Shown here one piece after another: positions 5,170 to 56,715 of a DNA stretch of 64,000 bases. The notes under the pieces are model-generated. The model saw only the letters and a list, made by a program, of their open reading frames with translations, ran no database searches and had not been told where the DNA came from. Each line of letters begins with the position of its first letter. Position 1 is the first letter of the stretch. Position numbers and translations under genes: made by a program. The stretch comes from Marsupella aquatica (lineage: Eukaryota > Plantae > Marchantiophyta), in NCBI GenBank assembly GCA_973895155.1, contig OZ316896.1, positions 17,906,754-17,970,753 of the forward strand. Reading direction: 5' to 3'.

Positions 5170-5500
5170 ATTGGCAAGTAATCTTCTACGACAGGACATG
5201 ACTCTGTCTAGTCTTACCCGGAGAACTGGCAAGTCCCACTCGGATTGGGAAGTCTCACAACTGAAATAGCTGCGAGAGAGAACTGTCTGGTCTCTGGAGT
5301 ACGGTGACAATGTATCGACTCCTTCCTAGACTGTATATTGTTCAGTGGATCTAGACACGGGAGTTGCAGCACAGTAGAGCTGGAATAATTGTCGCGGAGC
5401 AGTGTACAGCTACATCCTGATTGCACGTGATCCTTGAATCCATCGGCTAGGGTACGATTTATATGGAGAGATACGTCCAGATAAATGTGCAATCTCGCAG
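5170..5500 (+). repeat. ~330-bp flanking direct-repeat element, upstream of HNL1
   Basis: GCAAGTAATCTT...AAATGTGCAATCTCGC block. Homologous copies at ~12512-12820, ~17063-17388 and ~23977-24272, with split partial copies at ~13082-13140 and ~13563-13650. Confidence 0.8.
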
Positions 5501-6500: not shown

Positions 6501-9500
6501 ATGGCTCAGCAGGCCTCCTCTGGTCGCAGCCAAACTGGAGAGCCCTCCCATCACACAATTACGCAGGTATCTTACGGCATTAACCGCGATCTTGACCTCT
6601 TTGGGAATTCCTGTTCAGTCTATTTGGTGGTACTTTCGACATATGTAACGTGAAGATATTTCTCAATGATGAGTATTCTGAGATTCATCTATATATGTAA
6701 GTTTTCTATTTGGTGTTGTATCCAATCTCAAGTCGTATACAGCTAATTTTTATGCCTACATTATGTCGGCGTGCTTGGGTTTTACAGCTTAATGAATCTC
6801 TCTTTGAACTTTACAAACCGAAAGGCCGTGCTAGCATGGTGGTCTTGTTTTTTCACGGCTTTCAGCATGGAAATTATGAAAATGCCCATTTGTCAACATG
6901 GACAACGGACGATGGACGAGAGGATGGATCATCCACATGGCTCCAGACTTGGTTGGTTGATGACGACCAGTACCCCGATGCTCACATCCTTTCTGTTGAG
7001 TATAATGCGAGCTTGATGAAAAGCAACCAAGAAGGAAGCTTTGACCTCTACGTCATAGGGGAAAATATTATTTCAGATTTGCTAGAGGCAAATATTGCGC
7101 AAGATCTCCACTGTCCGATAGTATTGGTAGGACACAGTTTTGGGGGCCTTGTAGTGAAGGAACTATGCGTTCAAGCACATAAGAGAGGCAGCATGGGTAG
7201 CTCCAAGCACAAAACCTTTCTGGAAAATATCAAGGGGGCATTTTTCTACTCCACCCCTCATCATGGGATTTCAGGAGAAATTTCCGAGTATTTTGTGAGC
7301 AAAACAAATGAACCCTTGTTGAAATATGTGAAAGTCCTGAGTACTTCTGCAGCAAGATTGCATGAAGATTTTGAAAAGCTACGAAAGCAGTGCGCTTGGC
7401 AGACGGCAGGAGTAGGAGAAGGTTTAGCTACCCATCTGGTACGGGGCATTCACTCTCAATCTTATGAAATGGAAATATATTGAAGATTTCTGACAGCTTC
7501 CAATTATTTCTAAAGCAAATCAATGATTAGATATTACTTATAGACGGTAAAACATTTTCTCGATTGTTGACTAATTTGTTTCAGTTCATTCCATAGAACT
7601 GATAGACATAGGCAATGCGCAGTAACAGTTTCTTTTCTATGGATACCACTAACTCATCTACGTAGCATATAAGGGAGTTGATCAAGAGTAATTTGTGTGA
7701 AGGATATTGTAGATGCTTCATTCATTGGATCGTCACTTGCTTGTTTGCTTGTATGTGCGCAGAGCACATTTAAAACAGCGGTAATTGTACCGGAGGGATC
7801 GTCAAGATACGGAGACACCTTTGTTATCGTGCCAGAGGCTGATCACATATCAATCTGTCGGCCAAAATCAAAAATCTCAAGAACATTCAAGTCCTTGTCC
7901 AGCTTCCTGCGTGGAGTTTCCATTACTTGGAAGGTACGTGAAGTCAAATTGTCTCTCATATTTTTGGTGTACTTAATACAAAAGGTAGTGCTATGTCGCT
8001 TTGTGTCCACCGGTGCTTATTTTAGATTTTCTTTGTATTCATTGTTGGATTACAGAGACCAGTCCGGCCTCAGAACCGTCAATCTTTACCCAAATCAACG
8101 ATTGGTATTGATAATGTCATGAAAGAACTGAAACACAAGCTTGAGACGGTCACTAGTTTGGGCTTGACGGGTATGGGAGGGATTGGAAAGACCACCATGG
8201 CCAAGGCGTTATTCAATGATATCGAGCATCTTTACGAGTACACCTGTTTCGTTGGGGAGGTGAAGAATTACAGTGAGCACGAGGTTGAGGGTATGGTTTT
8301 AAGGAACATGCATCATATGGGAAGGAGGTTCACAGAGAAGGATCGTGGGTTAGAGTTCTTGGAAGGGGAACAGTTACTGTTGGTTCTCGATGATGTGGCT
8401 TCGGAAAAACATATTACGCTACTGTCAACCTTGATTGGTGACATTGGTATCCATGAAGACAGTCGCTTTGTGGTAACATCCAGAGATAGGGAACTTCTAG
8501 ATCAATGCTTGCAGGCAGTGCACCCTATGCCGTTTCTAAGCCAAGGAGATGCGAGGAAACTTTTCTTGGCCCATGCTGTTAGGCAAGAAGCTTCTCCTTC
8601 CTTTGAGGAACTCTTAGACATTGTTGTGAAAAAGTGCAGTGGGCTGGCTTTGACTCTGGAAGTCATCGGGAAGCATCTGTATAAAAAACCTGTGGCGATT
8701 TGGATGGAAGCGATCTCTATACTGGACAGGGCAGATTCTGTCCGTGGATTTGATGAGAAGTTGTGGAGTAAGCTCCGGATAAGTTTTGATGGTTTGGATG
8801 TTGAGGAGAAACACATATTCCTTGATTGTGCGACAGTATTCCATAGGGAAGGTCTGCTTGTGGCAAAGGCTGCCTGGAGCATCACCACAAATGGGCTTGA
8901 GGAGACACTTTGGCAACATCTTCTTGACTTATCGTTGGTCTGGGAAGATACTCAGTTCGATGATAGTCTAACTTGCGGCATGCATGAGCAACTTTTGAGC
9001 CTTGGGAAGAAAATAGCATCAAATGAAGTGGAATATGGCCTCAGGATGTGGAATCAGCCTAGAAGGGCTTTCCTTTTGTTATCATCAGATAATTGCAGTG
9101 ACAATGATGTGAAGGTGAGTTTGAAGAGTATGGTCTTTATTTGAGAATTTCCATGCACTGCATCATCGAATTGCCCGGGTTTGTATGATGGCCATTATTG
9201 AATGCTGCATGCTGTAGACCAAGGAGGGTCTCCCATGCTGTTGAATTTTCTCAAGACGTCACTGATATTGAGGAATATTCCACTTTGACATGGACAGGGC
9301 CACATGTACAAATTGGGTTTTGAAACTAAGAATGACTTGTGAGTTGAGATTTGTAGGCCATTGCTGCTATCAATGTGGATGGACGAGAACAAGGACATTT
9401 AACTGATGACGAGGTTTGTTGGTGGCATTTTGAAAAAGTTAATTTAGTCTGTGGAAAAGTTATAAGACAAGACTTCTCTAAATAAATATTTAGAACTAAT

Positions 9501-12419
9501 TAAAATGGATACTTGTGATCTTCTTTTTGATAGTAAGGTACTCAATGAAGAGCCCATTTGGTGTGAATGTATAAATCCTTGTTTACTTGGAATTGTTTTA
9601 CGAGAGAGGTCTAATCTTAGCCACAAACTGAAATGGTTTTTCTCGAAGTGAATATATATTTAAAAAAAGGCGTTGACTCGCGAGGTACTGTCAGTAGGTG
9701 TTAGTGCTTGTTTTGAATTTTTCTGAAGAAAGTTTCCACGCCAATGTTTTCTTTCACTACCTGCTTTCTTCATTCAGGCCACTTTTTTGTCAAAAATGAG
9801 CCATAGGGCATGTCTGGTTAAGCAAACTACACATGCCTGGTTAAGCAGATATATTCTTTTTGAATTTTGTTTGCTAACTGCACAAAAACAGTCATGACCT
9901 TTCAATTGCGAAAAGATCTATTTAATTTTGACCAATGTTAGAAAACCGGATGAGAGATATTGAATGGTAATTCTGTGTTGTTTGGTTGTAATTTCCATTG
10001 GTTCCACTTACTGCATTCCAAGTCTAGGAAATCATCTGTATGCTAGAGTCAATTTGCTGGAGCAGATCATGCAACTTCAGAAGGTCAGAATATTTAAAAA
10101 CTGTTTCATAGCTGGTCAGCTGTAACACTTACCCTTGAATTTTTTACTTTGTTCAGGAAAGCGTCACTCCCGTTAATACTGGGGACGCCGAAAACAGAAC
10201 TCTACCAGAAAACTCAACTGCAGAGACTTCCACCCGGGTCGTCGACAAATTTGTACGTTGTGACGAGTGTTCAATGAGAGTACCCATAGAGGGCCCGAGA
10301 TTCAAGTCTATGGTACAATATGACTATGATTTGTGTGGCGGGTGTTTTGAGAAGGGCGGTCACAGAAAAGACCAGTATGTTCGTATTGATCTACCTAATG
10401 TAAGTAACCGCAAGCGACTGACCGACCTCTTGAAAGAATTTTAAAGATATTTGTAATGAGCATTTCATCTCCTCACACAAAACTTTTACTATGGAAGGTT
10501 TGGCTGGACGCAAACACAGCATTCCTGTTGGAATATTAGAATGTATTGAAACAGAGTGCATGATCCACCTTCTGGAACACATGTGCTAATTGAGCTACTT
10601 TCAAATGATGTAGAAAGTATACAAGTCAGTAAAGTGATTTAAATTAGAGAGGTTGAAGGAAGATCAGATAGCTGTAGCACAAACATGTCAAACCTCTGAC
10701 ATGCCTGCACTGGATGTTTTGAAATGAATCTGCGTACAATGGTGGAAATTTTGACCCATAGTTGCCTTTGCTAATATCGCGTGCTCTCCCGAGGCATCTG
10801 GAGTGTTGAGGCTGTCCTACTCTCCCAAGGATATACTAATAAAGAGGAGATGAAAGAGGTTACATTAAGAAACAAATTCTAAGCCGGTTGTAGAGGACTG
10901 AGCACAGGATTATTTTTTATTGGATTGTTGATTCTATGGGGATGAAATAAAAACTGAATTTTGAGTTGGGATTTGTAGGATTATCGAGCTATCCGTGAGG
11001 GCCTCAGAGCAAATGTACAATCACATTCTGATGAGGTTTGTTTGTTACCTTTTCTTGACAAAGGGAAAACCTCGGGGCATGATGAGGTTTGTTGATGAGA
11101 TTTTGGAAAAGTTATTGTGGAAAAACACTCTAACCCAGGCCTTAGTATAGATTAGACGAGTATATAAAACTAAAGGTGTATTTGAGTTTTTCTTCTCAGA
11201 TGGTCCAACATGAAGAGCTACTGTAGTTTGGTGTGAATGGTTAAAACCTCTAACTTACTTTAAGGTAATAATAATGATAAAATGTTCTGAAGAGATGGAA
11301 CTTATCAGGATAACAAAAGCCTTTACTCAAAATTTATGGAAACTGTCTCGGGATTTCTAAGATGACCAAATGCTAGAAAGCTTGGACTGTCTACTACAAT
11401 ATATCTGTAGTTTTGAGGTTGTCCACGTGTCTCCCAAAGATACGTTCGAAAAGGTAAGATAAATGTGATGATATTCACAAACAAAGTCTAAGAAGGTAGG
11501 TTGTAATCTGTTTTATTGTTCTAATTCTGATTTTCAACGTAAAGTCTGAGACGGTAGTAGAGGACCAAGTACCAGCAAATTTCGTGAATCATCACTATTT
11601 AGGAGTAATTCAAAGCTGCGGCCTTCATTACTTCCGCTTACAGTAGTTAGAAAAACTAACCTGTTGTCTGGTGCCGTTGATGGTATTTGGTAGGACTTGC
11701 CCCCTCTTGAAGGAAGCACATTGTGCAATATGCGAAATCTGAGATATCTGGAGATGCACGGCTTAAGCATTGATCAAACTCATGGTGCAACACTGCCGTC
11801 GACACTCGTCTCCCTTAGGATGCGTCGAGTGCAGTTTTCTGATTTTCCTTTCCGTCCAAGCGACCATGAGCGGATGGCCATTCTGAGGATAGCGGATTGT
11901 GCTGGACTTCGTACCCTTCCCACTACTTTTGGCCGACTCTCTTCCCTTCAAGTGTTAAATATTACTGGGGCTCCTGATTTGAAGACCTTGCCTGACTCGC
12001 TTGGGAGTTTACGAAAGCTCTCAATTCTATGGCTATCCGATTGTTCGAGTCTATCGGAGTTACCGAAAATATTTGGTCAATTGGTATCTTTGAAACAGTT
12101 AACAATATTTGACTGTGATGCTCTATCAGCCTTGCCAAAGTCGTTTGGATTTTTACCAAAACTCAAAATTCTGTCTATCCGAGGCTGTCGTCGTCTTCAC
12201 ACCCTGCCCGATACATTCCTGGAGCTTCAAGGATTGAAGAAGTTAAAACTAGACGGGACATATTTGCAGAGCATTCCCAACTTGGAGAATCTTAGGTCAT
12301 TGGAAGATCTCGATGTACATCAGGATGCTCCTGATATTGCAATCGAGAGTCTATCCGATTTGATTCGTTGGAAGGCTGAGAGTGAAGCTCGTGAGGTTGA
12401 GGAAACTCGTCATGAATAA
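6501..12419 (+). CDS. alpha/beta-hydrolase-NB-ARC-ZZ-LRR immune receptor (HNL with integrated ZZ domain), copy 1, ~1009 aa
   Basis: Predicted exons 6501-6566, 6788-7438, 7763-7933, 8056-9114, 9357-9413, 10157-10399, 10979-11035, 11694-12419; all introns GT-AG and phase 0, frame open. Hydrolase motifs FFHG, GHSFGG, STPHHG, ADHISIC (SERAC1/PGAP1/SesB-like). NB-ARC motifs GMGGIGKT, LLVLDDV, SRFVVTSRD, GLAL, MHE. About 9 LxxLPxxFGxLxxLxxLxIxxC repeats. Confidence 0.9.
10157..10399 (+). other. Integrated ZZ-type zinc-finger exon (plant NBR1-like) of HNL1
   Basis: 243-nt phase-0 exon (TTCAG|GAA...AAT|GTAAGT) encoding ...RCDECSMRVPIEGPRFKSMVQYDYDLCGGCFEKGGHRKDQYVRID. Not in the ORF track. Confidence 0.85.
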
Positions 12420-12511: not shown

Positions 12512-12820
12512 CTGCAAGTAATCTTGTAGCAGTAAACATCACTCTGGCTAGTCTCGTCCGGCTTGGCAAGTGAATAACTGAAACACCGGCGAGGAAAACA
12601 CGTCTGGTATCTGAGAACGGCGACAATATCGACTCCTTCCCGAGCTCCTTCCTATTATATTGTTCAGTGGAGCAAGACATGTGAGATGAAGCACAGTAGC
12701 ATTGAAATAATTGTCGGGAGCAGTCTACAGCTACATCCGGATTGCACGTGATCCCTTGAATCCATCGGCTTGGGAAAGATTTACGTGGAAAGAAAGGTCC
12801 AGATAAATGTGCAATCTCGC
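12512..12820 (+). repeat. ~310-bp flanking direct-repeat element, downstream of HNL1
   Basis: Homologous to 5170-5500 (e.g. TATATTGTTCAGTGG, ACAGCTACATCC, GTCCAGATAAATGTGCAATCTCGC). Confidence 0.8.
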
Positions 12821-14779
12821 TATTCTCCACCTACCTAATGCATTCCTGTACCTTCAGAGACTCGAGCCCTTAGGCCTACTAAGGACATATTTGGAAAGCA
12901 TTCCTGACTTAGAACGTTCTCCGCTAATATATATATTTTTTTAAAGTAGTTTTCCGCTGTTGAAAGAATCCTGGTTGTCTTTGGCTGTGGAAAGTGGTCG
13001 CAACGAGAATGGAGCACTTGCAGGCTGTGAATTGTCGAACAGCCATTTGTCTGCCACATCTCCCAATCCATCTCGATCTGAGAAAGGAAGGGGCATCATC
13101 GGCAAGTAATCTTCCAGCAATCACCATCACTCTGGCGAGTCCATAGATTAGAACTTCTGGAACGTGTACGTTCGGAACAGATTGGTTGTCCTCTGCCAAC
13201 CCCAAATTCTTGATAGATTGGCTTTTTGTGTTGGAAATCAAATGGTTTCCATGTAATTTAACGCAACGAAGTTCGCTACATTAGTGACTGTCCTCTATCG
13301 TAGTTTTAGCTCCACTCCCGGGATCTCCGGGAGCTTTCCTCTGTGACATATGCGTGCTCCACTCCTTCCCCTAAGGATACTTTCTTGTGGCTGCCGTTTG
13401 TACCTTAGCTCTTCTTGCTGGCCTAAGTTTCCTTTCTGCTCCTGTATTTAGCTGGGCTCCCCCCGCTGGGTCTCTCATGCATTCAGCATCAATAAACATT
13501 CCTAGAAAGTTTATATTTTGGAGGCAACAGGTTCTTCCTATCTTGATTCTGGTGTGATCCATCTGGCTAGTAAATTAGTCTCACCGGGATCGGGAATTGC
13601 ACAACCGAAACGCCTGTGAGTGAAACACTGTTGGTCATGGAGTACAGTGATCCAGACAAGGGACATGAAAGCAGAGCAAAATTTGCCTTTCCTAGGAGCA
13701 GTCTAGGAACTCAGATCTCAGCCTGAATGACGTTGAATGCTAAACGTTGAACTCCATCTGTTAACAGGTAATGTCGGTAATTTCATTCTCCTCCAACAAA
13801 TTTCAAATCTTCATTCTCATTTCGAGCGAGACTAACGACATTATAGCTGAATGTTTGCTACGAGACATTCAGGTGATGGTCTAGTGATATAGTCTTCCCT
13901 GGAGGGCCCACCCTGATCCTCTGATTTCGGAAAGCCTCGAGCATCGGCAATTTTGTGTTCTGAAATATTGGGCTGTAGGGCATTAAATTTGAAGTCGATG
14001 ATGCTGGTGGCAGTTTGGAGTGATGGCCCCAGGGGCTGATAGTTGGGGTAGGGGGATGGGTAGCACGGGGATCCCCAATCTGGGGTCATGGCCCGCGCTC
14101 ATTTTGAGCTACTGGTGCTGCCTGGGCGCTCTTGCGTGGTCTCCTACCTTTTCATTTTCAAATTAATTCGTGGACCCCATGTTCATCCAAAGAATGTGTG
14201 TTTGATGAAGTGAAATCAATTTTCAACAAGGCGGTAATCGACGGTTTTGAGTCTCTCGATGGTCTTGGTGTGTGCTCGTACAAAAGAAAACGCTCAAAAG
14301 ATAGAGAGGAGATTTATCAACGGAAGGTTGAATATGGAGGAATTGAGTTTTTTGACGATTTTTGCTTACACATTGGAGAAATCGTGTTTCTATCATTCAT
14401 GATTGATCGTTTGTGAGTTACATTGAGCATTACCGCCACAAGACAGACTAGAGGACAACACTTAGCTATTGGCAAAAGAACGCTTGTCGATTCGGTGGGA
14501 AGAACACACAAAACAAACGAGTCATCGCTTCACATGAAGGATTTATAATTTTTTTATTTAAGAAAGCTATAGTGTGAAAGGGAGCCCAACAATTGTTTCT
14601 TTGACATAGTGGCTGCATTTGGCGTCAACCTATGTTCAGAGTGAGCTTCAGTTGAAGACTAGAGGAATGCGAACAATTCAATCCGGGAAGCAAGCATTGT
14701 GGACAAGGGATGGCGACGTAATCAAAAAAATCAATTTTCAACGGCTAAGTTTGTGAAGGTGATGAGATTGTGATATCTC

Positions 14780-15275
14780 TTAATCGAGAAAAGGTTTCCA
14801 ATGAGCCTCAAATTGACAAATTTTGTCAAGTTTCAAATGAGTTTTTGAATTTCTTTGTCTTTCCAATGAGTGTGAGTATAAGAAATATTGATCATGAGTC
14901 CATGAATTTTTTTAGCTTTCCAATATTGAGTCCGACATTGACAAATTTTACGTCAGATTTTGTCACGATACTAAAGAGATCACGAGGTTTTCAATCTCTC
15001 TAGCTTTCTAATGTGTGACATTGAGATTATTCGTCAAAAATTAGAGAGATCATGAGTATCTGAATTTCTCTAGCTTTCCAATGAACCTAGCATTGATAGA
15101 TTTTGTCAAATACTAAGGAGACGATGAGTTTTTAATTTTACTTTAGCTTTCCAATGAGTGTGACATTGATATATTTTATCAAGACAATACTAAAGAGGTC
15201 ACGAGTTTCTAAATCTTGATCTTGAGTTTTCCAATGAATCAAACATTGACATATTTTTTCAAATACTAAGGAGAT
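14780..15275 (+). repeat. Degenerate ~65-70-bp tandem repeat array
   Basis: Recurring core TAGCTTTCCAATGA...CATTGA...TTTTGTCAAATACTAAGGAG, about 7 units. The same family occurs inverted at ~47580-48345. Confidence 0.75.
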
Positions 15276-18200
15276 TGATTATTTAATTTTACTATGTACA
15301 TTTCTATTGGTTGGTTTTTTCAAGCTTGCAAATAATTAAAAAATACAAGCATTTTGATATAAAACACTGATATATCTTTGACAAACATCAAATTGGTAAC
15401 TTTATTTTACTAAATGACATATCTCTCTTTGTATTTTGGTTTTTTTTACGTTCAATATTTACGGTATGGCGCCCCAAAAATTATGTTGTTTTTGCCACAA
15501 ACAGGATTGTGCACATTTGTTATTGTTAAAAGTAGGACTGCGCAACCTCATGGCAAAGAATTTGCAAGAGACCTCTCATGGAGGTCCGTAATGAATTTCC
15601 TACTCGTGTGGTTTAACGAGACCAGAGCGTTGAGACGATAGATCAACAGCTATACACACTTTGAGAAGGCAAACTACAGTATTGTATCGACCACATGAAA
15701 GCTCATTAGCTTATTCCATGAGGTTTTCATTGATACCAAAATTATTCATGAAATTCAAAATTACGGAAAAGATGATGGCTGCAATTTTCACTTCAAAATA
15801 GTGATACACGATTCTACAAACTGATCAAATAACCTGTCCCAGTGAAAATTTGAAACAGTTTTCCTTTCATAAAAAATTGCTATCTGAGTCTACGAAATGA
15901 TTAATTAAGCTATCCCACTGAAAGTTTCGAGTAGTTCTCACTCCATTTGTAGTGCTATTCGCTAGTACAAAATCATCAACATGAGTTGTCCCAGTGAATC
16001 TTTCAAACCCACTTTCCCAGACTTTTGTAACTAACCCATTAAAAAGTATGGAACTTATGGATCAAACAAGTATTGAAGTTTGAACCCGCTTTAGTGTCCA
16101 CTAAAAATCCATAACCCATTGCTTCCACGCCCCACAATGTTCACAAATCTAATTTGCGGTTTGCGGGTAAACCTAGCCAGTGATTTAAGTTTTGCAGGGC
16201 AATTATAGCACATTTGCCCCGCCAACAGGGTCTTAAACAGTTGCACTGCTCAGGGATTTTTCATTCTTTCTATTTGTATACTCTTTTTTCTTTCCACACC
16301 TTAGGCAAACCTGGAAACTCCAGGTTTAACTTTTTACTAAGAGACAGACAAGTAGAAGACAAAGATGGAAACTGTAGTAGGTTTCAGCTTCTTACAAACA
16401 GACAAGTCGAACGACCACGGTTCGAGGCCAAGTCAAACGACCTCACACGGGCTTACTGCTTTACAGAGCCCAAACGGATCAGAGTGGTCGGAGCTGTTTG
16501 CAACTTAGTTGCTGAATCAGAATCTCTTTATTGAATCTCTCGTCAATTAGACAGCTTCAATTCAATTTCTGCCACCTAAATCACACAGCGTCCAGTCAAT
16601 CTCTGCCACTTCAGTCAAACAGCTTTTAATTCAATCTCTACCTCGTCATTCAGACAGCTCCGAGTCAACACTCTCTTCAATTGATTTATCTTCCTACTAA
16701 AATATTGCGTTTAACTCAGACAGCTCCGAGTCAACACTCTCTTCAATTGATTTATCTTCCTACTAAAATACTGCGTTTAACACAGAAAAAAGGTCTGCCT
16801 ATGACTCACCGTGCATACTTTCTTGCTGGTCAAGCAAAAGGACTTTTATTATCGTCACACGAAGACTGTAGTTTGTGGGTCCAGAGCATGGCAGGCTATC
16901 TCGTTGCCACCACACTGAAAATATTGAAACAATTGGAAATGACAAAGTATTGGGAAAGTTGGCCAAGAACACATTCACGGTTTTGGATAGCTGCAGACCT
17001 GCAGAGGCTTGGTCAGGTTCTGCAACCGCAGAGAGATTTTGTAGTAGTAGACGGGCACTCATTGGCAAGTAATCTTCTACGAAAGAACATGACTCTGTCT
17101 AGTCTTACCCGGAGAACTGGCAAGTCCCACTCGGATTGGGAAGTCTCACAACTGAAACAGCTGCGAGAGAGAACTGTCTGGTCTCTGGAGTACGGTGACA
17201 ATGTATCGACTCCTTCCTAGACTGTATATTGTTCAGTGGATCTAGACACGGGAGATGCAGCATAGTAGAGTTGGAATAATTGTCGCGGAGCAGTGTCCAG
17301 CTACATCCTGAATGCACGTCCCTTGAATCCGTCGGCTAGGGTACGATTTATATGGAGAGATATGTCCAGATAAATGTGCAATCTCGCAGAGAGAGTTTGT
17401 AGCAGTGGACTCCGCAAAATTCCGAAACAAAGTGCTGTGGATCGCCTGTTGTCTCCGTAGGTTGGAGCAGTATCATGTGTCACTGTGTCCCCTCTAAATT
17501 TTGCTTGATGATGGGGACATCTGCCTACCAGAGTCACAGAACGGAGCCCTTTCTGAGTAGATTGGCCCATTAACAACGGCCATCACGGGATCGACACCAA
17601 CCGTGTTGATCTTGACGTTGATCTGCCGCGATTGAAGTTTTTGTGGACGAAGTGCTGGACCTTCTCGTCGCCGGATCTGGACGGATCGCAGGACTGATTG
17701 GGCTGGGAGCTTTTTCGAGTACGTCTGACGACGGGAGGTCGGAAGGGAGGTAGCTTAAACTAGTTGCATTCTTCTCTGTCGGTCTACCACCCGGACAAAT
17801 TCATGAACATCAGGTGAGACTTTTGCACAGGAAAGAAGTTGCTGTCTTAAACATTATCTCAAACAAATACACTCAAATTTTGGAACTGTCATGGCGTGAT
17901 ATATTACGTTTAGGACAAAGCAAGCTATTGTTGTGGTATTTCTCACATTCGACTTGATCTCATCTAGTGAATGGTTTGCCGCTATCCGGCAACAAGTTTA
18001 TGTTGTGCGATGACGTGTCTACAGTAATGCCTGGTGGTACTCATTCTCCCAATTGGCCTACGCGCGAGCGGGACTGCTGCAAACTGATCACCTCAATTAG
18101 GTTAGGATCTTTCTAGAGGTAGTTCGGGGCTCCTCTTCTCGTTCATCCAAACATTGATTCAAAACTTCGGACGAAAGTAAGCAAGTTCTGTTTAAATCTG

Positions 18201-18410: not shown

Positions 18411-21400
18411 ATGGCTCAGCAGGCCTCCTCTGGTCGCAGCCAAACTGCAGAGCCCTCCAATCACACAATTACGCAGGTATCTTACGGCATTAACCGCGAT
18501 CTTGACCTCTTTGGGAGTTCCTGTTCAGTCTATTTGGTGGTACTTTCGACATATGTAACGTGAAGATATTTCTCAATGATGAGTATTCTGAGATTCATCT
18601 ATATATGTAAGTTTTCAATTTTGTGTTGTATCCAATCTCAAGTCGTATACAGCTAATTTTTATGCCTACTTTATGTCGGCGTGCTTGGGTTTTACAGCTT
18701 AATGAATCTCTCTTTGAACTTCACAAACCGAAAGGCCGACCTAGCATGGTCCTGTTGTTCTTTCACGGCTTTCAGCATAGGAATTATGAAAATGCCCATT
18801 TGACGGCATGGAAAACTAAGGATGGACGAGAGGATGGATCATCCACATGGCTCCAGGCTTGGCTGGCTGATGACGACCAGTACCCCGACGCTCACATTCT
18901 TTCTGTTGCATATAATGCTAGCTTAATGAAAAGCAAAGAAGAAGGATGCTTTGACCTCTACATCGTAGGGGAAAATATAATTTCAGATTTGCTAGAGGCA
19001 AATATTGCCCAAGATCTCCACTGTCCCATAGTATTGGTAGGACACAGTTTTGGGGGCCTCGTGGTAAAGGAAGTGTGTGTTCAGGCACATAAGAGAGGCA
19101 GCACGGGTAGCTCCAAGCACAAAATCTTTCTGGAAAATATCAAGGGGGTATTTTTCTATTCCACCCCTCATCATGGGATTTCAGGAGAAATTTCAGAGTA
19201 TTTTGTGAGCAAAACAAATGAACCCTTGTTGGAATTCGTGAAACTCCTTAGTACATCTGCGGCAAGATTGCGTGACGACTTTGACAAGGTACGAGAGCAG
19301 TGCGCTTGGCAGACGGCAGGAGTAGGAGAAGGTTTACCCACCCACCTGGTACGGGCATTCTCTCTGACTCTTATGAAATGGAAATATATTGAAGGTCAAA
19401 TCAATGATCATACAATACTTACACACAAAACACTCTTTTAGATCGTTGACGTACTAGTTTGTTTCAATTTATTCCAAAGAACAGATAGACAAAGGCAAAG
19501 CGCAGTAACAGATTCATAGTGAAGTGCAACTCTATGGATGCAATCTACTTTAGTAGTAATTCATCTAAAGTAGCATATAAACGAGTTGATAAAGAGTAAT
19601 TTGTATGAAGGATATTGTAGATACTTCATTCATTGGATCGTCAGTTAGTTGTTTGCTTGTACATGCACAGAGCACATTTAAAAAACAGGTAATTGTACCA
19701 GAAGGATCGTCAAGATATGGAGACGCCTTTGTTATCGTGCCAGACGCTGATCACATATCAATCTGTCGGCCAATATCAAAAATCTCAAGACCGTTCACGT
19801 CCTTGTCCAGCTTCCTGCGTGGAGTTTCCACTACTTGGAAGGTGAAGTCAAATTCTCGGGCCCTCATAATTTTGGTGTATTTCATACAGAAGGTAATGTT
19901 ATGTCACTTTGTGCCCACCGGTACTTATTTTTATATTTGCTTTTCATTGTTGACTTACAGAGACCAGCCCGTCCTCACAACCATCAATCTTTGCCTACGT
20001 CAATGATTGGTATTGATAACGTCATGAAGGAACTCAAACAGCAGCTTAAGACGGTCACCAGTTTAGGCTTGGCGGGTATGGGAGGGATTGGAAAGACCAC
20101 CATGGCCAAGGCGTTATTCAATGAAATGGAGCATCTTTATGAGTACACCTGTTTCGTTGGGGATGTGAAGAATTACAGTGAACACAAGGTTGAGGGTATG
20201 GTTTTAAGGAACATGCATCACATGGGAAAGAGGTTCACAGAGAAGGATGGTGGGTTAGAGTTCTTGGAGGGGAAACAGTTACTGTTGGTTCTCGATGATG
20301 TGGCCTCAGAAAAACACATTATGCTCTTGACAACCTTGATTAGTGACATTGGCGTCCATGAAGATAGTCGCTTTGTGGTAACATCGAGAGATAGTGAACT
20401 TCTAAATCAATGCTTGGAGGCAGTGCACCCTATGCCGTTTCTAAGCCAAGGAGATGCGAAGAAACTTTTCTTGACCCATGCTGTTAGGCAAGAAGCTTCT
20501 CCTTCTTCTGAGGAACACATAGACATTGTTGTGAAAAAGTGCGGTGGGCTGGCTTTGACTCTGGAAGTCATAGGGAAGCATCTGTATAGAAAACCTGTGG
20601 CGGTTTGGAAGGAAGCTATTCCAATACTGGACCGGGCAGATACTGTCCATGGATTTGATGAGAAATTGTGGAGTAAGCTTCGGATAAGTTTTGATGGTTT
20701 GGATCTTGAGGAGAAACACATGTTCCTAGATTGTGCAACAGTATTCCGTGGGGAACCTCTAAGTACAGCAAAGGTAGCATGGAGCGTCACCACAAATGGG
20801 CTGCAAGAGACACTGTGGCAACATCTTCTTGACTTATCGTTAGTCTGGGAAGTTCCTCTGTTCGGGTATCTAACTTGTGGCATGCATGAGCAACTTTTGA
20901 GCCTCGGGAGGAAAATAGCATCAAATGATGCGGAATATGGCCTCAGGATTTGGGATGACCATACTAGGGGTTTCCGTTTGCTGTCAGCTAAGGATTGCAA
21001 TGAGAATGATGTGAAGGTGAGTTTGAAGAGTATGGTCTCGATCTGAGAACTTCCGTTCACTGCAGCCAAGAATTGCTTAATTAGGGGTTTGCCTCTTGGC
21101 CATTATTGAATGCTGCATGCTGTACATCTAACTAAGGAAGGTCTCCAATCTGGATCTTCTGAACATATGACTAATACGGAGGATTATTCCACTTTGATCA
21201 TGTACAGGGCTATGTGTAGAAATTCAGTTTTGAGAAAAAGATTGACTTGTGAGTTGGGATTTGTAGGACATTGCTGCTATCAATGTGGAGGGAGGAGGAA
21301 GAGTACATTTGTCTTTACTTGAGGTTTGTTGGTGGCTTTTTGAAAAAGTTGTTTTGGAAAAGTTATAATTAACGCAAACCTTCTATACATGAATGCTTAG

Positions 21401-23971
21401 AACTAAATGGATAGTTGGAGTTTCCTTATTGAAATGTAGTAGATGACGAGCTCATTCATGTGAACGAATAAATCCTTGCTTTACTTATTTTAAATTGATT
21501 TTTTTTAATAAATAGAAAATTATGTAGTCTTAGCCTCAAACTAAAATGTTTTCTCTCTTAAGTAAACCGCATGCACTCCTCTAGACCTGACGGTAAAGCG
21601 ATGACTTTTCAATGTGTTGGTGAAACAGCGTGAATATATCTACTTTTCTGAGAAAGGCTCCGGGAAAGGCTTTCCTCCGGGGGCTCTCACAAGAACTCTA
21701 CCAGAAAACGCAACACCAGAGAATTCGACCAAGGTCTTCCACAAGTATAAAGTTTGTGACAGGTGTTCAATGTACCCCATAGAAGGGCCGAGATTCCACT
21801 CTCGGGTGCAATTCAACTATGACTTGTGTGCCCGGTGTTTCGAGAAAGGTGGTCACACAAAAGACGAGTACTCTCGTATCGATCTACCTCCTGTAAGTAA
21901 CCCCAAGCGACTGACCTCTTGCAAAAATTTAAATTATTTTCCATGAGCGTTTCATCTGATCACACGAAACTGTGTCTATGGAAGGTTTGGCTTGTACATT
22001 CAAACATAAAATTCCGATTTGATCATAAGAGTGTTAGTATTGAAAATATAGTCCATGATCCACCTTCTGTAATACATGTACTAAGCTCCTTTCAGAATGT
22101 AGAAAGACCGTATAGAAAGTCAATAAATTGATTTGATTAGAAGATGTTGAGGGAAGGTAAGAGAGTCGACGCGCGAACTGGTCAGACCTTCGATGTGCCG
22201 GTATTTATTTAGAATTTTTGAATAGAATCTTCAGAGTAAATTTTTTAAGACTTTTTTTTATAAATTTGCGGACGATGATGGAAAATGAATTGCTAACATC
22301 TTGAATTTGGAGTTTTGAGGCTGTCCTCTTCAACCTCGCAATGATATACTACTGAAGAGGAGATGCACATGATTACATTAAGAAACAAATTCTAAGATGG
22401 CGGTAGACCGAGGAGTAAGCACAAGAACATTTTCTAATGAATTATTTTCATTCTGTGGGGATTCAATATAAACTGACTTTTGAGTTGATCTTTGTTCGAT
22501 ATTCAGGCTATCAATGTGGGTGGAGGAGCAAGTGTACTGTCCTCTGATAAGGTTTGTTTTTCTTTTTTTGCGCAAAGTGGAAGGGAAATCCTGCGGATGA
22601 TGAGGTTTGTTGGTGGGGTTTGGAAAAAGTTAATGTGGAAAAACTCTGTAACCTTCGTAGAGATACCTTCATAGAGATGAAAACATATATGAATACATAG
22701 AATTAATGTATAAGTAGGTGGTTCTTCTTCTCGGGATGTACAAGCTGAAGAGCTCCTTTGGTGTGAATGGAAAAACGTTCCTTGTTTTCTGTTAACTAAA
22801 ACAATGCTCTAAAGAGATAGGACCTTCCAGTATGACTAGAATGTTTTCTGGAAATTTTCCTAGATATATGTCTGGACTTATAATTGACCAAATGGTAGAA
22901 ACTTTTGTACTGTGAGAAGATATATCTGTACTTTGAGGCTGTCCATAAGTCTCTCAAACATATATTCTGAAAGAGAGGATGAATGTGATTACATCTAGAT
23001 GCAAATTCTAAGACGGTAGGTTGGATCGATCCTGTCAGTTTAGATGTTTTAAATTCCAAGGCAAAGTCTAAGACGATCGTAGAGGACCAAGTACCAGCAA
23101 ATTTCGTATTGAATCATCATTAGGATTAACTCGAAGCTGCGGCCTTCGTACTTAAATACGCTTACAGTCGTCAAGCCAGTTGCAAACTGTGAAAGAAACT
23201 AACCTGTTGTGTGGTGGGGTTGATGGGCTTTGGTAGGACTTGCCCATTCTTGAAGGAACCACATTGTGCAAAATGCGAAATCTGAGATACTTGACGATGT
23301 CTGGCTTAACCATTGATCAAACTCATGGTGCAACACTGCCGTTCACACTTGTTTCCCTTCGGATGGCTGGGATGCAGTTTTCTGATTTTCCTTTCCGCCC
23401 AATCGACCATGAGCGGATGGCCATTCTGAAGATAGAGTGGTGTTCTGGTCTGCGTACCCTTCCCAGTACTTTTGGCCAACTCTCATCCCTTCAAGAGTTA
23501 CATATATGGGGGGCTCGTCATTTGAAGACCTTGCCTGAATCGCTCGGTCTTTTACCGAAGCTGACATCTCTAAGCTTTTCCAGTTGTTCAACTCTAGTGG
23601 AGTTACCGCAAACGTTTGACCAATTGGTATGTTTGGAAACACTAGAAATTAATTTCTGCGATGCTCTATCAGGCTTGCCAAAGTCGTTTGGATATTTGTC
23701 GAAGCTCAAATATCTGGATATCAGAGGCTGTTGTCGTCTTCACACCCTACCTGATACATTCCTGGAGCTTCAAGGATTGGAGCGCCTATACCTCTTGCAC
23801 ACATCGTTGCAGAGCATTCCCAACTTGGAGAATGTTAGGTCATTGAAAGATCTCAGAGTATATCAGCATACTCCTTATATCAGTATCCCAAGTGTGTCCG
23901 AGTTGCTGCTTCGGAAGGCCACTCATGAAGCTCGTGACGTTCAGGAGGAAACTGGTCATGAAGAAAGTTGA
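18411..23971 (+). CDS. alpha/beta-hydrolase-NB-ARC-ZZ-LRR immune receptor (HNL with integrated ZZ domain), copy 2, ~1006-1014 aa
   Basis: Predicted exons 18411-18476, 18698-19348, 19671-19841, 19961-21016, 21267-21323, 21629 (or 21653)-21892, 22507-22551, 23237-23971; all phase 0. Same motifs as copy 1: GHSFGG, DHISIC, GMGGIGKT, LLVLDDV, GLAL, MHE, LRRs. Confidence 0.9.
21629..21892 (+). other. Integrated ZZ-type zinc-finger exon (plant NBR1-like) of HNL2
   Basis: Encodes VFHKYKVCDRCSMYPIEGPRFHSRVQFNYDLCARCFEKGGHTKDEYSRID, with donor CCT|GTAAGT at 21893. Two in-frame acceptors are possible (CAG 21628, GAG 21652). Confidence 0.85.
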
Positions 23972-26900
23972 GCTCCTGCAAGTAATGTTTTACCAGCAAA
24001 CATTACTCTGGCTAGTGTCGCCCGGGTTGGGAAGAGCTGCAACTGAAACGCCTGTCAGTGAAACACGTCGGGTCTTTTGTGACAATTTGTCGATTCCTTC
24101 CGACTATATTGTTTAGTGGATCTAGACATGAGAGATGAAGGCACGGCAGAATTCACTTGCAATAATTGTCGGGGAGCAGATACCTACATCCGGATTGCAC
24201 GTGATGCCTTGAATCCATGGGCGAGGGAAACATTTATATGCAGGAACACATCCAGGGAAATGTGCAATATTGCTGTACTGAAGCTTAAGGACTGGAAATT
24301 TGGTTTGATAGCAGTGTGCCCAATCCACATGATTATGCTTTGAATCTTACTGAATTTGGGAATGTTAGGTGCATCGAAGGCCTGACTTCGAGGTGCTCTG
24401 CGCACTGGCTGAGTGGGTACTGGCACGTACTGATCCCAAACGGTACTCGATGGAGGAAACATCTGTCAGGGAGTCACGGGAAATTCACACTTCCCTCCGC
24501 TGGTCCGAGGAGGCTGGGATGCGACGAGACGAGAGTTAAGGCTACCATTGAATTGGGGGCGACAATGGATGGACTGGAAATGTGATCGACTAGCAGCTCT
24601 AGGCTGATAAGGCTAGCTAGCCTACTTGAATTTGCACATCAGATCGTGCAGATCGAAGCATGCCAGATGGCTGGCTCACTTGAATGGACGAAGTTCTGTA
24701 GACTAATTGTTTAGCTTTCTTGAGGTTGCACTGTTCTCCATCGCAATTTGCGTGACATTCTGATGCCATCGTCCGGGTCCGTCCTTTTATTTCATTGTCA
24801 TGATTGATATTCAGGATCGACGGAATCGTACCCATTGACAGAGAATGTTTTTTCGAGATCTCTAAATAATTCACCACTCCCCAAATTGATTCTCCTACCC
24901 AACCCCGTTGTTCTCTGGATTCCTGTCTGCATTGCGCATGAGCAAGCGTTCCCCCTCCCCTACTTTTCCCTTCTATTTGCCAGATCCTTATCTAGAGAAG
25001 AGAGGTTTAAGGTCTAGAGGGACCCAATGGCTTGAATATGGCGAGATTGCACATTTCCTTTCACTGAAGGAGCAAAAACGCCAATCACACTTCTGTCCCA
25101 AAATGGGGAAAATGGTTGGCCTGGACCAAGCTCTGCCTGCACTCTCCACCCCCATAGCTCTCCTTGTGACTCGACTCTCTTTGTACTGATCCTGCTGCCT
25201 CTCCTTCCGAGCTTGCAGCAGCCATCCCTTTGGCTTTGGAGCTCTCGGCTACCGCCATACTAAGCTGTAAAGCTCAATGTTGCCAACGCTTCCTTGTGTG
25301 CATATTAATTAAGTTGCCAAGGAAAGTCGCTCTTTGGTGGACTTGTTCATGAGCTCGCATTTGTCCCTCACTTTGGTTGATGTGGGACTTCTTTGGTGCA
25401 CGATGGACGACACAATGTTCATCCTAATTAGTGTTAGGAACAAATTAGCGTCACTACCAAATAAGTGTTAGTAACACTAACCTTTGAAAGTTATCTTAAA
25501 GTCCATGACAAAACCTGGATTCACGAGGTTTCACCACTTTTAGTACTTTTTTTCTAAAATTGTGGAGCAAAGTCTCCCCCTCGAGGTGAGGAATGTGGAA
25601 AAGGGAGAAGTCTCGAACACTTTTCCTTTTATATGGCCAATGGTGATTTAAGTTCAAAGTAAGACTAATTCTTGTCCGTTTTTGAAAGTAGTTTCTTTCC
25701 ACTCCTGTTTAAAGTTCTAGGAAAAAATGGGTCATCTTGAGTCTCCAAAGTAACACTAACTCTTGTGTATTTTCAAAATAGTTTTGTTTCCCACTATGAG
25801 CCTAAATGCCCATTCTTTGAGTATTAATACTAGGAATGATGACAAAAATGATCTTGCGTCATTCATTTAGACATACATAGAATGATCTATCTTTCTTTCC
25901 ATCTGCAAATTTTGGTGGGGCCCTAGAGTCACATCCTAGATAGATCTAGCTTCTATTCCCGCTTTATTAGTACTATATTTCCACTCTTGAGGCCAAAGTA
26001 ACACTGATTCATGTGTGCAGAATTAATATTATAACAGAATTAGAGTGAGTAATACTAATTAATGGGTAGAGCCCAAAATTGGCCCCTTGCATATTATAAT
26101 ACTAATCAATATGAACAGCTCAAGAGGTTAACTCAGTGTACATTTTGGGGTTATGCACCCATCCTAGCCTAATATAATTGCATCTATTTTATCAAGAAAA
26201 ATTTCCAAAAATATTCTTAATTTTCAATATGGATTATTTATTGTACTTTATAGAAGGCATATATTAGAGAACATTTTATAAATGTGAGTTTAATATACCT
26301 TCTTTTGTCTCTTACGCTTTTTAAGTTTTTAGCTAATTTCAAGCAAAAATATTTATTTTGGATCACTTTCCTACAATTTTTTTCTATTAGGACCCCCCCC
26401 CCCCCCCCAGGTAAACAATGTAGCTTTTCATGGTAAATGGATGCAGCCATTGTAAAAAGGTCTCCTCCACATATTTCCTATCAAAACATTGAAAATGGGA
26501 CCTTGTTTGTTAATTTCCATACTTCCAATTACATTTACATTTGTTCAAATTATCATGACATGCATGGTTACTGTATTGTTATCACACTTTAAATCTAACA
26601 ATACAAATGGCACCTTCATTTTCTGGGGTTTACCTGGTGTTTGTCTCCATGGAAGGATGGCCAGATTGAACAATCTATTGTTTCCAGTATGTAGAGCTCT
26701 CACAACTCCCATCATGACTGCAGCGCGTGAACTGTGATGGTACCCTACCCAGGGATACCAGCCAAGAATTATAGTGATCGATCAAGTGAACGTCCCGATA
26801 GTGAGGTTCTGTATAGACACAAAAGACTGACACTCAAGGCGCTTGGATGGAGTGACTACCAACCTTGATAGGCACAATCTAGACATTGATTACACTCCCA

Positions 26901-33085: not shown

Positions 33086-34777
33086 CCTAGAGTGATACTA
33101 CATAATTTTGTGTAATACTGGTAGGAATTAAATTATAGATATCATTTCAGTCAATAGAGGGCTACATACATTAATCAAATAAAAACCCATTCTCCCAATA
33201 TTTGGGGTGATTTTTTACATTCGTCTTTTGTGTCATTTTCAGTGCCAAAAAAACAAAATCAATAAGGCAGGGCGTTGATGGCAAGGTGTTAGGTAAGGGA
33301 CACACTTTTACTTGATGACATCTTTTTAGTTCACAATATCTTTCACATAAGTACATCTTTGGTGAAATAATAATTTTTTATTAACATCTTTTTAAGTGAT
33401 GATGTCTTTGTACTTCCCGACATGTTTCACATCACGACATCTTGGGCGACATGACATCTTGGGCGACACAACATTTTTTTCTTAACGACATCGTTTGTGT
33501 AACGCACATGTATTGAGCTAGTTAGAGGATCTCCACTGGTTTGGTGGCAAACACTCCCCAAACAATGTAAATAGAGGTGTGTTTACATGCATTGAGATGA
33601 CGCTATCGTTACTGACAGTCCACAACCCAATTTGAAAAGACCCAACCTGACCTCCATTCCTAAAAAGGGACTCATAGCTTCAAAAGTACTGTCCAAATGG
33701 ATCTGGATGTATCTGTTTCCCCCTAGTTGATGACCACCTATCTTGCTAATTTTGATAGTGGACAGTTTGGATTTGGACGACCTCTAAATATTTGGAGACA
33801 CTGGTTTCTCTCCCTACCAGAAACCCCCAAGCTTTCTCTCCATAGAGTTCATTTGGCAGTTTAGTGGTGGATGATATGGAGCTCCTTGTAAATCTTTTAG
33901 GCCCCACAAGGCCCCACAAAATGTACCCACCCTGTTTGCATGGAGATCAGGCGCCATTTATGCTCCAAAAGCCCACTCACTGATCCACTCGCAATCCTCA
34001 CAGTTCGCCCTTGATTACTTTTTTCGTGTCGAGAGATTTCAACGAATGACGTACTGTACTTTTCGTTGGGCCGGATGATTTCTTCCTGGCTGTGATCGAG
34101 CAATCGGGCAGCTGAACAGTATTTTTCCCAGCTAGCAACCCATCTCAGCCCACTCGAGATTCGTTCGCTTCGCTTCGGGCAATTACAAGCCATAGCGTTT
34201 CCTCTGCTGGACTCGGTGATGAAACGAAAGCCCACCTTCTGAGGCGATCCATGTCCTAAAAGACATTGCCGGATCAGCGATAGGGCTGTTGGAACTTTGC
34301 CCCAAATCGCTTGTCTCAAAGAGAAGCGATGAAGTGGTGAATGATGCGTGCCCTGCCCGGTTGTGAGATAAGAATTGGTTCTCGATCCGTTTCGAGAGAA
34401 GGTAGAAGCAGACTCAGTGCCCTTGCAGCTGTACAAGGAATTGCATGTACAGTGCGCTTTGAGTTCTTGTCTTCGAGGGTCGGCCCGGTGTTTCCGAGGA
34501 TATGTTTCCAGGATCTACTTTCCTTGCCATCGACCGATCGATCGGGCTTCGTTGATCCATCAGTATGACTACCATTCTGCGTCAATTGGAGGACGGTGTG
34601 AGCTGCGGTGGTGCGAAGGGGTCATTTGACACGTTCCTCGAGTAGGTATTGCAAAGAGAGGGAGAGGAGGGAGGGAGGTGGATTCACACATAGGTGAGGT
34701 AGGGAGGCAGTGAGGAATCCGGTTTGATCCCCAACGGAGGATTGAGGGGTGTGCAGCAGTACCAGGCTGTAGATAGA

Positions 34778-39821: not shown

Positions 39822-40942
39822 CCTCCAGAGCCTGCCCCCCAGAAAGCGAGATGAGTACAAAAGCAATAATTGGCAATGAATGAATGTCGCTTCGAGACAA
39901 GGATTGGAAAGGACAACAGTCAAAGCGAAGGCAGGACAGCAGAATACAGCAGTGATCGAAGCACTGGGTGAAGACAAGCCAGCGTGGTGTTGTCGGTACG
40001 GTGGAGTACAAGCGAAGTAAGTAATCCTGAGTGAGGATTACATAGAACAGCAGAATCCAACGAGAAACTCCTCCCTCTCAAATTCATTCCCTCTCTGGCG
40101 CTCTGCCTCTCTCCCAGTCCCTCCCTCCCTCCCTCCCTTTCCCTTTCCCTTTTCGTGCTGTTCAATACTTCTATCGTTGGTGCCACGGCGTGCAATCTCG
40201 TGGAACCCAGAGTGGCACTGGCTCCACACGCGTCCACATGGCCGCATTTCCTGCAAGTGTGAGGTTTCAGTCGCACGGCACCCGACGTGATGCGACTAGA
40301 TGTAATAAAAGTCAAGCTCACGGATCATGGATCTCCATTGCACGGAGTTCAGGTGGCCTCCCTGAACGACATTTCTACTCAACTGAACTGAATCCTGGAG
40401 AACCGTTTAGAAGAGGGAAACAGTTAATCTGTGTCTGTTCAAAATTTGTACCGGGAGTTATCCAGTTTCGCTCGAGGTGAACTGGTGAAGGGAAGGAAAG
40501 GACTGAGAGCCCAGATTCATAACTGTGAATTGTAATTCGTCGTTTTGCGAATTGAAGGTAGGCAGGCAGGCAGGCAGGGTAGAGGGAGAAACCAGCTGAT
40601 CTCTCTGAACTGACCTCGGAAGAGAAAATCCGTTCAGCGGTGGAAAGCCGGTTGTTGAGCTGGATTGCTTTGCCAGAGTAGTCATTCTCGCTCGAGGTGA
40701 CGGAGAGAGAGTTGAAGGAGTTGTCGTTGTTGGTAGCAAGTGAGGAAAGAAGAATTGAAGGACAGAATTCGGAGTTGAGGAAGGGATTGGCTAGTTGTGG
40801 AAAGGAAGGATCGAAGGGTCTCTGGTTCTAGTGAGGAACCAAGGTAGAAATCAGTGCAGGAACGGATTGTTTAGTTTTGGAAACGAAGGATCAAAGTTTG
40901 GTTACAGGAAACGAAGGATCGGACTAGAGCATAGTAGTGGAG

Positions 40943-55492: not shown

Positions 55493-56715
55493 CTTTGACT
55501 ATAATGTGAATTTCGGATGTGGTCTCTGCTGCAATTGACGCCGCAAGATTGGAAACGATGTCCGCTTGCTAGGTTGTTGGATCGAATGAGCACTCGGGGA
55601 TATCCACGGACTCCGCCCAGCTAGTACACACAGGAATTATCTGGGTGATCAACTCCTGCTTCTGCAAATAGTGCCCTCGCCGATTGGGGAGAAGTACAGG
55701 TGCTACTGGTTCACAAAAGCCATGACCTTCATCTCCCACGCGGGCTCCCACGTACTTGCACGATCACACATCAGACCCAGTTACGATCTGCTGCACAACA
55801 AGTAAGTAAGATGAGTAAGTTGAATCGAACGTCAATCTACGAATTAAATTCGGGGTAGCCGGTACAAAGCTACAAAAAACCACAAATTTGGTTATGTCAT
55901 GAACCTAAAGTAGTCTCGCCATGCCGACGACAGGACTAGATTACAGAAAAGCTACACAATTGAAGGCAGCTAGACCTAAGACGGATTAGTAACTTGCAAT
56001 AAGTCTATTTACTTGGAGATATTGGCGGCTACCTGTGGGGGAGGGGGCGGTGGTGCTCGCGGAAGAAGAGCACTTCAAGCAAATACTCAATCAAATGCGT
56101 TCGCTCTCGATAATAGGAAATGAAAAGAATCCAAACGCAGCATGTGCATGTATGCTACCACTCCGCAACTGCTGCAAACAGGATGGGGTCGTGTCGAATT
56201 CATTGGTTGACGGCAACGCTTTACGCCATTTCGATAATTAGTAGCGTTGATTGAAGGTGGAAGATGTCACTGACAAAAAAAGAAAAGAAGCCCGAGCCGT
56301 TATTAATTTCGTATATTTGCTCCATGCATCCATCCAAAATAAAACCAACGAAGGAGTTCTTGCTACTCCATTAAAAAGGCAGGTAAGAAACTCACAAACG
56401 GATTCGGACGTTGACAACACCGTGAAGCAGCAAAGATCAGATGACGTACGCCAGCCTGAGCTTACAGCGCAAGAGTGAGTCACGTACATACAAGTTCTCC
56501 TGTGGGAGGATTATAATTGCAGACGAACAAATTGTGGAGAAAGAGTGTGGGAACAACTCCTTATAACACTTTTAGGTTGATCTGCTGCAGCACCTGCTGG
56601 AAACGAATGAGGACCGAACCAATGACTCACTGAAGTGCCGTTGAAGGGAAATTCTTGCGCTCATGATGAAGAGTTCATTACCAGTAGAATGCTTGGTCAC
56701 TGGTCAGTCTGGGCT

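Follow-up and report, generated by a model that had tools for sequence, protein, structure and literature searches.

Integrated domains mark sensor types among the nucleotide-binding and leucine-rich repeat receptors (NLRs) of plants, and they occur in hydrolase NLRs (Hyd-NLRs) (PMC11218826). Two Marchantia hydrolase domains caused cell death in N. benthamiana (PMC11218826). The ZZ domain (PF00569) has already been mentioned among Physcomitrella NLR-like genes (PMC7145615). Here we analyzed a 64,000-nucleotide stretch of contig OZ316896.1 from the liverwort Marsupella aquatica (positions 17,906,754 to 17,970,753 of the forward strand; hereafter the window). It carries two tandem Hyd-NLR genes, copy 1 and copy 2, each with a predicted ZZ exon between the NB-ARC and LRR exons. 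The reading that we favor, at about an even chance, is that the ZZ domain is an integrated bait, likely captured from an NBR1/p62-like autophagy receptor.

The ZZ domains of both copies exceeded the curated PF00569 cut-off of 21.4 bits (copy 1, 31.1 bits, E-value 2.1e-7; copy 2, 35.7 bits); therefore, the ZZ domain is not a chance match. The motifs listed by an earlier sequence-only reading were found again in the translations, namely CDEC, RFKS, and DYDLC in copy 1 (10259-10399, + strand) and CDRC, RFHS, and NYDLC in copy 2 (21755-21892, + strand). The key residues of copy 2 are Asp 21758, Tyr 21773, Asn 21815, and Asp 21821. The features of the ZZ domains are as follows.

10157..10399, + strand: predicted ZZ exon of copy 1; 243 bases, 81 codons, phase 0-0, stop-free, CAG acceptor, GTAAGT donor
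10259..10399, + strand: ZZ core of copy 1, with Cys at 10259, 10268, 10334, and 10343
10244..10246, + strand: Asp replacing His five residues N-terminal of the first Cys in copy 1, by alignment
10262..10264, + strand: Asp equivalent to p62 D129 and PRT1 D312, which bind the alpha-amino group in those proteins, by alignment to p62 and PRT1
10277..10282, + strand: Arg-Val, where loop 1 of copy 1 has gained one residue; either of the two codons may be the extra one
10322..10330, + strand: D-Y-D, equivalent to p62 D147 (backbone contact) and D149 (alpha-amino group)
21653..21892, + strand: predicted ZZ exon of copy 2, with the core at 21755-21892

Copy 1 was modeled without zinc from 18 sequences; the model had a predicted local distance difference test (pLDDT) score of 79.8. 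Its top Foldseek match was the p62 ZZ domain, with a template modeling (TM) score of 0.73, a root-mean-square deviation of 2.7, and an E-value of 1.2e-3. The top Foldseek rows were ZZ domains with probability 1.00, none at an E-value of 0.001 or less. A fold of copy 1 predicted without an alignment had a pLDDT of 53.7 and was discarded. The ESM Atlas returned ZZ clusters only (0.79-0.80), which we used as a lead only, and a word-based search with the copy 2 ZZ domain gave one candidate and zero matches.

In both copies, Ser-x-x-Gln stands in place of the middle Cys pair (10307-10318 in copy 1), so neither has the second zinc site seen in p62. In canonical two-zinc ZZ domains, such as those of p62, PRT1, and HERC2, the middle Cys pair plus two His make up this site.

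To place the two domains, we used 74 ZZ domains from 66 NBR1-type proteins, chosen by Pfam set among 120 matches listed and including one protein labeled frog at source, likely a contaminant. The background set comprised 365 ZZ domains from 139 of 150 proteins listed, and one pattern was applied to both sets. The second-zinc Cys pair was lost in 74/74 NBR1 domains, as in both copies, and the best matches of both copies were NBR1-type proteins. Judged by their four Cys residues, the Ser at the first site of the lost pair, and these best matches, both copies are green-plant NBR1-type ZZ domains. The residue three positions before the first Cys was Gly in 71 of the 74 NBR1 domains and is Phe/Tyr in the copies.

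The sequence-only reading had described copy 2 as lacking one residue after the first Cys pair. Copy 2 is indeed the shorter by one residue there, but copy 1 is the one that gained. The spacer between the second Cys and the conserved Arg is 9 residues in copy 1, 8 in copy 2, and 7 in p62; a spacer of 8 was found in 74/74 NBR1 and 344/365 background domains, and a spacer of 9 in none (0/74 and 0/365). Five residues ahead of the first Cys, 74/74 NBR1 and 304/365 background domains have a His, which copy 2 keeps and copy 1 replaces with Asp. Because of this extra residue and the loss of this His, copy 1, not copy 2, is the derived copy, and we rejected the view of copy 2 as a degenerate one. In contigs of three runs (X1, X3, and X4), 1 base is missing at 10278 and 2 bases at 10280, consistent with alleles or paralogues that do not carry the extra codon of copy 1.

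The top match of both copies was the second ZZ domain (ZZ2) of a PB1-ZZ-ZZ-UBA protein of the leafy liverwort Calypogeia fissa, P0126 (CAM6119610.1)/P0275 (CAM6104089.1). Identity to the linker plus ZZ2 of P0275 was 36/73 for copy 1 and 36/69 for copy 2 (49-52%), and the likeness reached into the upstream linker. This donor-like ZZ2 carries N-Y-D and the 8-residue spacer. In the three NLR ZZ lineages, the best match outside the lineage was P0275 ZZ2, except in one (P0010), where it came within one point of the best. Against the window copies, the ZZ cores of C. fissa NLRs did not outscore the donor-like ZZ2. On these alignments, the simplest reading is a likely capture of the ZZ exon from a PB1-ZZ-ZZ-UBA gene, in which it would have encoded the second ZZ. 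P0126 itself has PB1, two ZZ, and UBA domains and no FW-domain match, which makes it p62-like in layout unless the gene model is in error.

The exon structure around the ZZ domain was predicted from DNA alone for both genes, including all splicing. In one open frame, Pfam profiles matched an alpha/beta-hydrolase (DUF676), NB-ARC (PF00931), and LRR (LRR_14), in this order, and the GHSFGG, P-loop, and kinase-2 motifs were found in the hydrolase-NLR. By domain content, with hydrolase, NB-ARC, and LRR in phase, both genes are Hyd-NLRs. The ZZ exon lies between NB-ARC and LRR, in frame, in both paralogues; in copy 1, it encodes a 34-residue linker followed by the ZZ domain. In both genes, it is flanked by two diverged copies of an intron block, each with an in-frame mini-exon of 15-19 codons.

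6501..12419, + strand: NLR gene copy 1, hydrolase-NLR, predicted; seven exons, all phase 0, stop-free inside
6501-6566, 6788-7438, 7763-7933 (hydrolase), and 8056-9114 (NB-ARC), + strand: predicted exons of copy 1, 5' part
9357-9413, 10157-10399 (ZZ), and 11694-12419 (LRR), + strand: predicted exons of copy 1, 3' part
18411..23971, + strand: NLR gene copy 2, predicted tandem paralogue with the same layout
18411-18476, 18698-19348, 19671-19841, and 19961-21016, + strand: predicted exons of copy 2, 5' part
21267-21323, 21653-21892 (ZZ), and 23237-23971, + strand: predicted exons of copy 2, 3' part
9357..9413 (copy 1) and 21267-21323 (copy 2), + strand: mini-exon of 19 codons before the ZZ exon
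10979..11035 (copy 1) and 22507-22551 (copy 2), + strand: putative second mini-exon downstream of the ZZ exon, a diverged copy of the first, reading in frame with AG/GT borders
9290-9660 and 10900-11330 (copy 1), 21195-21570 and 22420-22830 (copy 2): flanking intron blocks

Local alignment scores between mini-exon blocks were higher than those of all 300 shuffles in three of three comparisons. The block duplication predates the gene pair, since it is present in both genes. It may mark the ZZ insertion event, and it may also permit isoforms with or without the ZZ domain. In the ZZ region of copy 2, contigs of runs X1 and X3 span 21260-23340 with zero differences. No intron-spanning joint was present among the joints listed from the contigs of four runs, whose contig type is unstated, so this result is uninformative on expression.

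The best 16 of 672 NB-ARC matches were all from C. fissa, at no more than 68% identity. Five of these 16 closest relatives have a ZZ insert at the same site and 11 have none, giving seven inserts together with the window pair, in two NB-ARC clades and two organisms. The four Cys and the Asp pair are intact in four of the seven (copy 1, copy 2, P0001, and P0005). P0007 lost the D149 equivalent, P0010 lost the D149 equivalent and one Cys, and P0006 lost both Cys pairs and both Asp, though this NLR is otherwise full-length. A damaged pocket in 3/7 NLR inserts versus 0/74 NBR1 domains gave a Fisher p of 0.0004, a value that is overstated because the sequences are related, because the NBR1 set was found by a ZZ profile and pattern favoring intact domains, and because the genes with a damaged copy may be dying. 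Retention that differs in this way between paralogues would suit baits that follow shifting ligands.

The ratio of nonsynonymous to synonymous substitution rates (dN/dS) between copy 1 and copy 2 was 0.39 for the ZZ core (bootstrap 0.14-1.15; 46 codons). Elsewhere in the genes, it was 0.25 (main hydrolase exon), 0.42 (NB-ARC), 0.79 (LRR), and 0.87 (ZZ-exon linker). Within the same exon, the copies were 74% identical in the ZZ core versus 47% in the linker. The ZZ core value leans towards constraint.

Synonymous divergence (dS) of the ZZ exon (10157-10399 versus 21653-21892) was 0.48, about twice that of NB-ARC and LRR (0.22-0.28), and intron 1 was 98% identical between the copies (6501-6787 versus 18411-18697). 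This uneven divergence could stem from an earlier split of the ZZ exons or from gene conversion affecting the 5' end. Both window NB-ARC domains (8056-9114 and 19961-21016) have GLAL where 15/16 C. fissa relatives have GLPL, and MHE replaces MHD in both of them and in 15/16 of these relatives. The predicted N-termini of the window copies read MAQQAS (6501-6520 in copy 1). C. fissa P0005-P0007 begin with MGQGAS, which resembles a myristoylation signal.

Under the integrated-bait reading, capture of the second-ZZ exon of a PB1-ZZ-ZZ-UBA gene would have left a duplicated mini-exon block on both sides. The NLR-borne ZZ domain would then be bound, via the pocket or another surface, by a pathogen protein that either acts on the autophagy receptor or is its target. 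Binding at the ZZ domain would release the NB-ARC switch, and the released switch would let the N-terminal hydrolase domain signal. The paralogues would drift, with the donor-like surface kept in copy 2, altered in copy 1, and lost in P0006, P0007, and P0010. Plant NBR1 engages XopL, HopM1, P4 of cauliflower mosaic virus, and HCpro (PMC9582228).

Several points weigh against an integrated bait. Phylogenetic trees of the ZZ domain (45 and 17 rows; 53-70 columns) left the donor and the number of captures unsettled: one NLR clade had a support of 32/78, and approximately unbiased tests rejected neither the window copies with P0005/P0007 (p 0.245) nor the window copies with ZZ2 (p 0.298). The putative donor was identified through a C. 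fissa protein, not from the host plant's own gene. The predicted inclusion of the ZZ exon rests on in-frame DNA and on C. fissa gene models, and for the copy 2 ZZ exon the homologous acceptor reads GAG, a weak site; with the in-frame CAG located 24 bases upstream, that exon would begin at 21629. The dN/dS interval of the ZZ core includes 1. NLR immunity to pathogens has not yet been shown outside flowering plants, according to PMC11218826, and neither the papers listed by a literature search nor PMC9582228 gave a case in which a pathogen protein binds the plant NBR1 ZZ domain.

A second explanation is that the ZZ pocket binds a free N-terminus, produced by a pathogen protease or present on a processed effector, and thereby triggers the NLR, with preferences that differ between paralogues. 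The premise behind it, that p62/NBR1-type ZZ domains bind N-degrons, stands for p62 and fission-yeast Nbr1, but for mammalian NBR1 the reviews conflict: binding is denied in PMC9582228 and affirmed in PMC8037982. Plant NBR1 is named only as a potential N-degron receptor (PMC8037982). Of the p62 pocket residues, D129 and D149 bind the alpha-amino group and N132 senses the side chain; D147 contacts the first peptide bond and is not sequence-specific (PMC6098011). PRT1 uses D312 and D336 and has Gly at the p62 D147 position, yet it binds; its aromatic preference comes from Y317, I333, and chiefly F352, and its Gly308 pairs with the ligand backbone (PMC12370974). Binding of N-termini by the ZZ pocket was described as a conserved mechanism in which Asn can serve and varied N-termini are tolerated (bioRxiv 2021.02.07.430097).

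Alignment to p62 and PRT1 indicated that both alpha-amino Asp are retained in both copies, as are the four Cys, so the acidic pocket is kept, as the sequence-only reading had stated. The copy 1 model matched peptide-bound p62 ZZ with TM scores of 0.72-0.73. With the four Cys, the Asp pair, and the fold kept, the pocket may still accommodate an N-terminus. AvrRpt2 and other effector proteases create neo-N-termini (PMC8037982). However, the Asp pair was found in 74/74 NBR1 and 293/365 background domains. It is the family default, and its presence is therefore expected under any reading; the pocket was likely inherited rather than newly selected. It is also damaged in three of the seven NLR inserts. 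Both zincs of p62 are said to be necessary for placing the pocket residues (PMC6098011), and the second zinc site is absent here. Asn132 of p62 is Ser in both copies and the D147 equivalent is present in copy 1 only, so the residues of a p62-type reader are not complete in either. The main determinant of PRT1, Phe352, sits on a loop unique to PRT1 and absent from the copies, which therefore also do not have the full set of residues of a PRT1-type reader. Phe or Tyr occupies the position of PRT1 Gly308, a ligand-backbone partner in PRT1. A pocket tolerant of varied N-termini would meet host ligands too.

As for preferences that differ between paralogues, the sequence-only reading had pointed to NYDLC and RFHS in copy 2. 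N-Y-D proved ordinary, being found in 21/74 NBR1 and 106/365 background domains as well as in the closest donor-like domain. His after RF was found in 29/365 background domains. We rejected D-to-N alone as a change of specificity, because the site contacts the backbone and is Gly in PRT1. RFKS/RFHS was rejected as a pocket change, the Lys or His after RF not being among the pocket residues named for p62 or PRT1 in the accessible texts. Loop 1 offers a better, still weak hint. Copy 2 has Tyr at the Tyr317 site of PRT1, a residue found there in 5/74 NBR1 domains, and Phe at the Ile333 site, and the insertion of copy 1 falls in that same loop. The preference for a protease sensor over a decoy was not upheld, and nothing in our analysis connects the ZZ domain with pathogen proteases. 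Sensing of N-termini is a special case of the bait in which the pocket is the working surface; nothing in the analysis favors this case, and we regard it as unlikely. That a liverwort NLR family detects proteolysis itself through an autophagy-receptor pocket, triggered by whatever free N-terminus of a suitable class a pathogen protease makes or a processed effector exposes, with loop 1 tuning the residue read among paralogues, seems to us rather improbable.

A third explanation is that the ZZ exon is a symmetric exon in a tolerant linker, decaying or usually skipped, with no sensing role. The insertion site between NB-ARC and LRR varies much in length across the family, and 11/16 relatives have no ZZ insert. 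P0006 lost both Cys pairs within an otherwise full-length NLR, copy 1 lost the invariant His, and dN/dS of the core was not significantly below 1. The phase 0-0 exon and the flanking duplicated mini-exons would allow skipping. The retention of four Cys and the Asp pair in 4/7 inserts, across two NB-ARC clades and two organisms, argues against a passenger, as does the higher identity of the core than of the linker in the same exon. We consider such a passenger unlikely.

Finally, a regulatory module, in which the ZZ domain binds the native N-terminus of a host partner (a guardee, a helper, or another NLR) and the loss or alteration of this contact activates the receptor or controls its turnover, is consistent with the native N-termini and extra surfaces bound by ZZ domains (Nbr1 with Ams1 and Ape4; bioRxiv 2021.02.07.430097), with HERC2 ZZ structures with H3 and SUMO1 (by entry titles), and with a location between NB-ARC and LRR that could couple to the switch, but three damaged inserts of seven are hard to square with an essential brake and no partner is known, so we think it very unlikely.

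The window also contains features around the two NLR genes. A high-copy repeat lies between them (about 14175-15590), with a contig depth about 100 times that of its flanks. Each NLR gene has an element of about 280 bases on either side, four occurrences in all (5226-5498, 12512-12821, 17117-17387, and 23976-24274), with 71-80% identity. Three further open frames are, presumably, an AAA-type ATPase gene (40928-42887, + strand), an F-box/kelch-like gene (54029-55498, - strand), and a membrane receptor-like gene (34703-36934, + strand).

Integrated domains indicate host proteins under pathogen attack. An NBR1-like ZZ domain in liverwort NLRs would suggest that selective autophagy receptors are a pathogen target in early-diverging land plants, and it would single out the ZZ domain as the point of contact. 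In this family, ZZ inserts that are intact, altered, or broken occur naturally alongside a donor-like protein. This series makes it testable whether a one-zinc plant NBR1 ZZ binds N-termini and whether an NLR reads them. If an NLR did read N-termini or N-degrons directly, this would be a new recognition logic for plant NLRs. No publication was found on an NBR1-derived ZZ domain in a liverwort NLR or on an NLR reading N-degrons through an integrated domain, in a search that covered mostly open-access literature. The main text of Sarris et al. (PMC4759884) does not mention PF00569 or NBR1.

Compared with the ZZ domain of green-plant NBR1/Joka2, the window domains share the four Cys, the Ser at the first site of the lost pair, PIEGPRF, YDLC, and the Asp pair. 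They differ in being fused within an NLR and in having Phe/Tyr for the Gly three residues before the first Cys; copy 1 alone adds the one-residue insertion and the His-to-Asp change. The ZZ hydrolase-NLRs of C. fissa (P0005, CAM6114803.1; P0007; P0001) and the remnants P0006 and P0010 have the same domain order and insertion site, and the NB-ARC domains of P0005-P0007 are 65-68% identical to those of the window, but the pocket is damaged in P0006, P0007, and P0010. The p62/SQSTM1 ZZ domain (PDB 5YP8 and others) shares the fold (TM 0.72-0.73) and has equivalents of D129, D149, and R139 in both copies and of D147 in copy 1. Unlike p62, the window copies have no second zinc site, have Ser for Asn132, and have a loop 1 longer by 1-2 residues. 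With the ZZ domain of Arabidopsis PRT1, a type-2 N-recognin (PDB 8ZG8-8ZGB), they share equivalents of D312 and D336, and copy 2 has Tyr at the Tyr317 site and Phe at the Ile333 site; the long loops 2 and 3 are absent, hence there is no Phe352, and there is one zinc site versus two in PRT1. Bryophyte Hyd-NLRs with integrated domains have the same hydrolase-NB-ARC-LRR layout (PMC11218826). In the accessible accounts of PMC11218826 and PMC7145615, neither an NBR1 origin nor a placement between NB-ARC and LRR is described, and the pocket is not analyzed. Hyd-NLRs, integrated domains, and a ZZ domain in a Physcomitrella NLR-like gene were known already; the NBR1-type ZZ domain in a liverwort NLR appears to be new.

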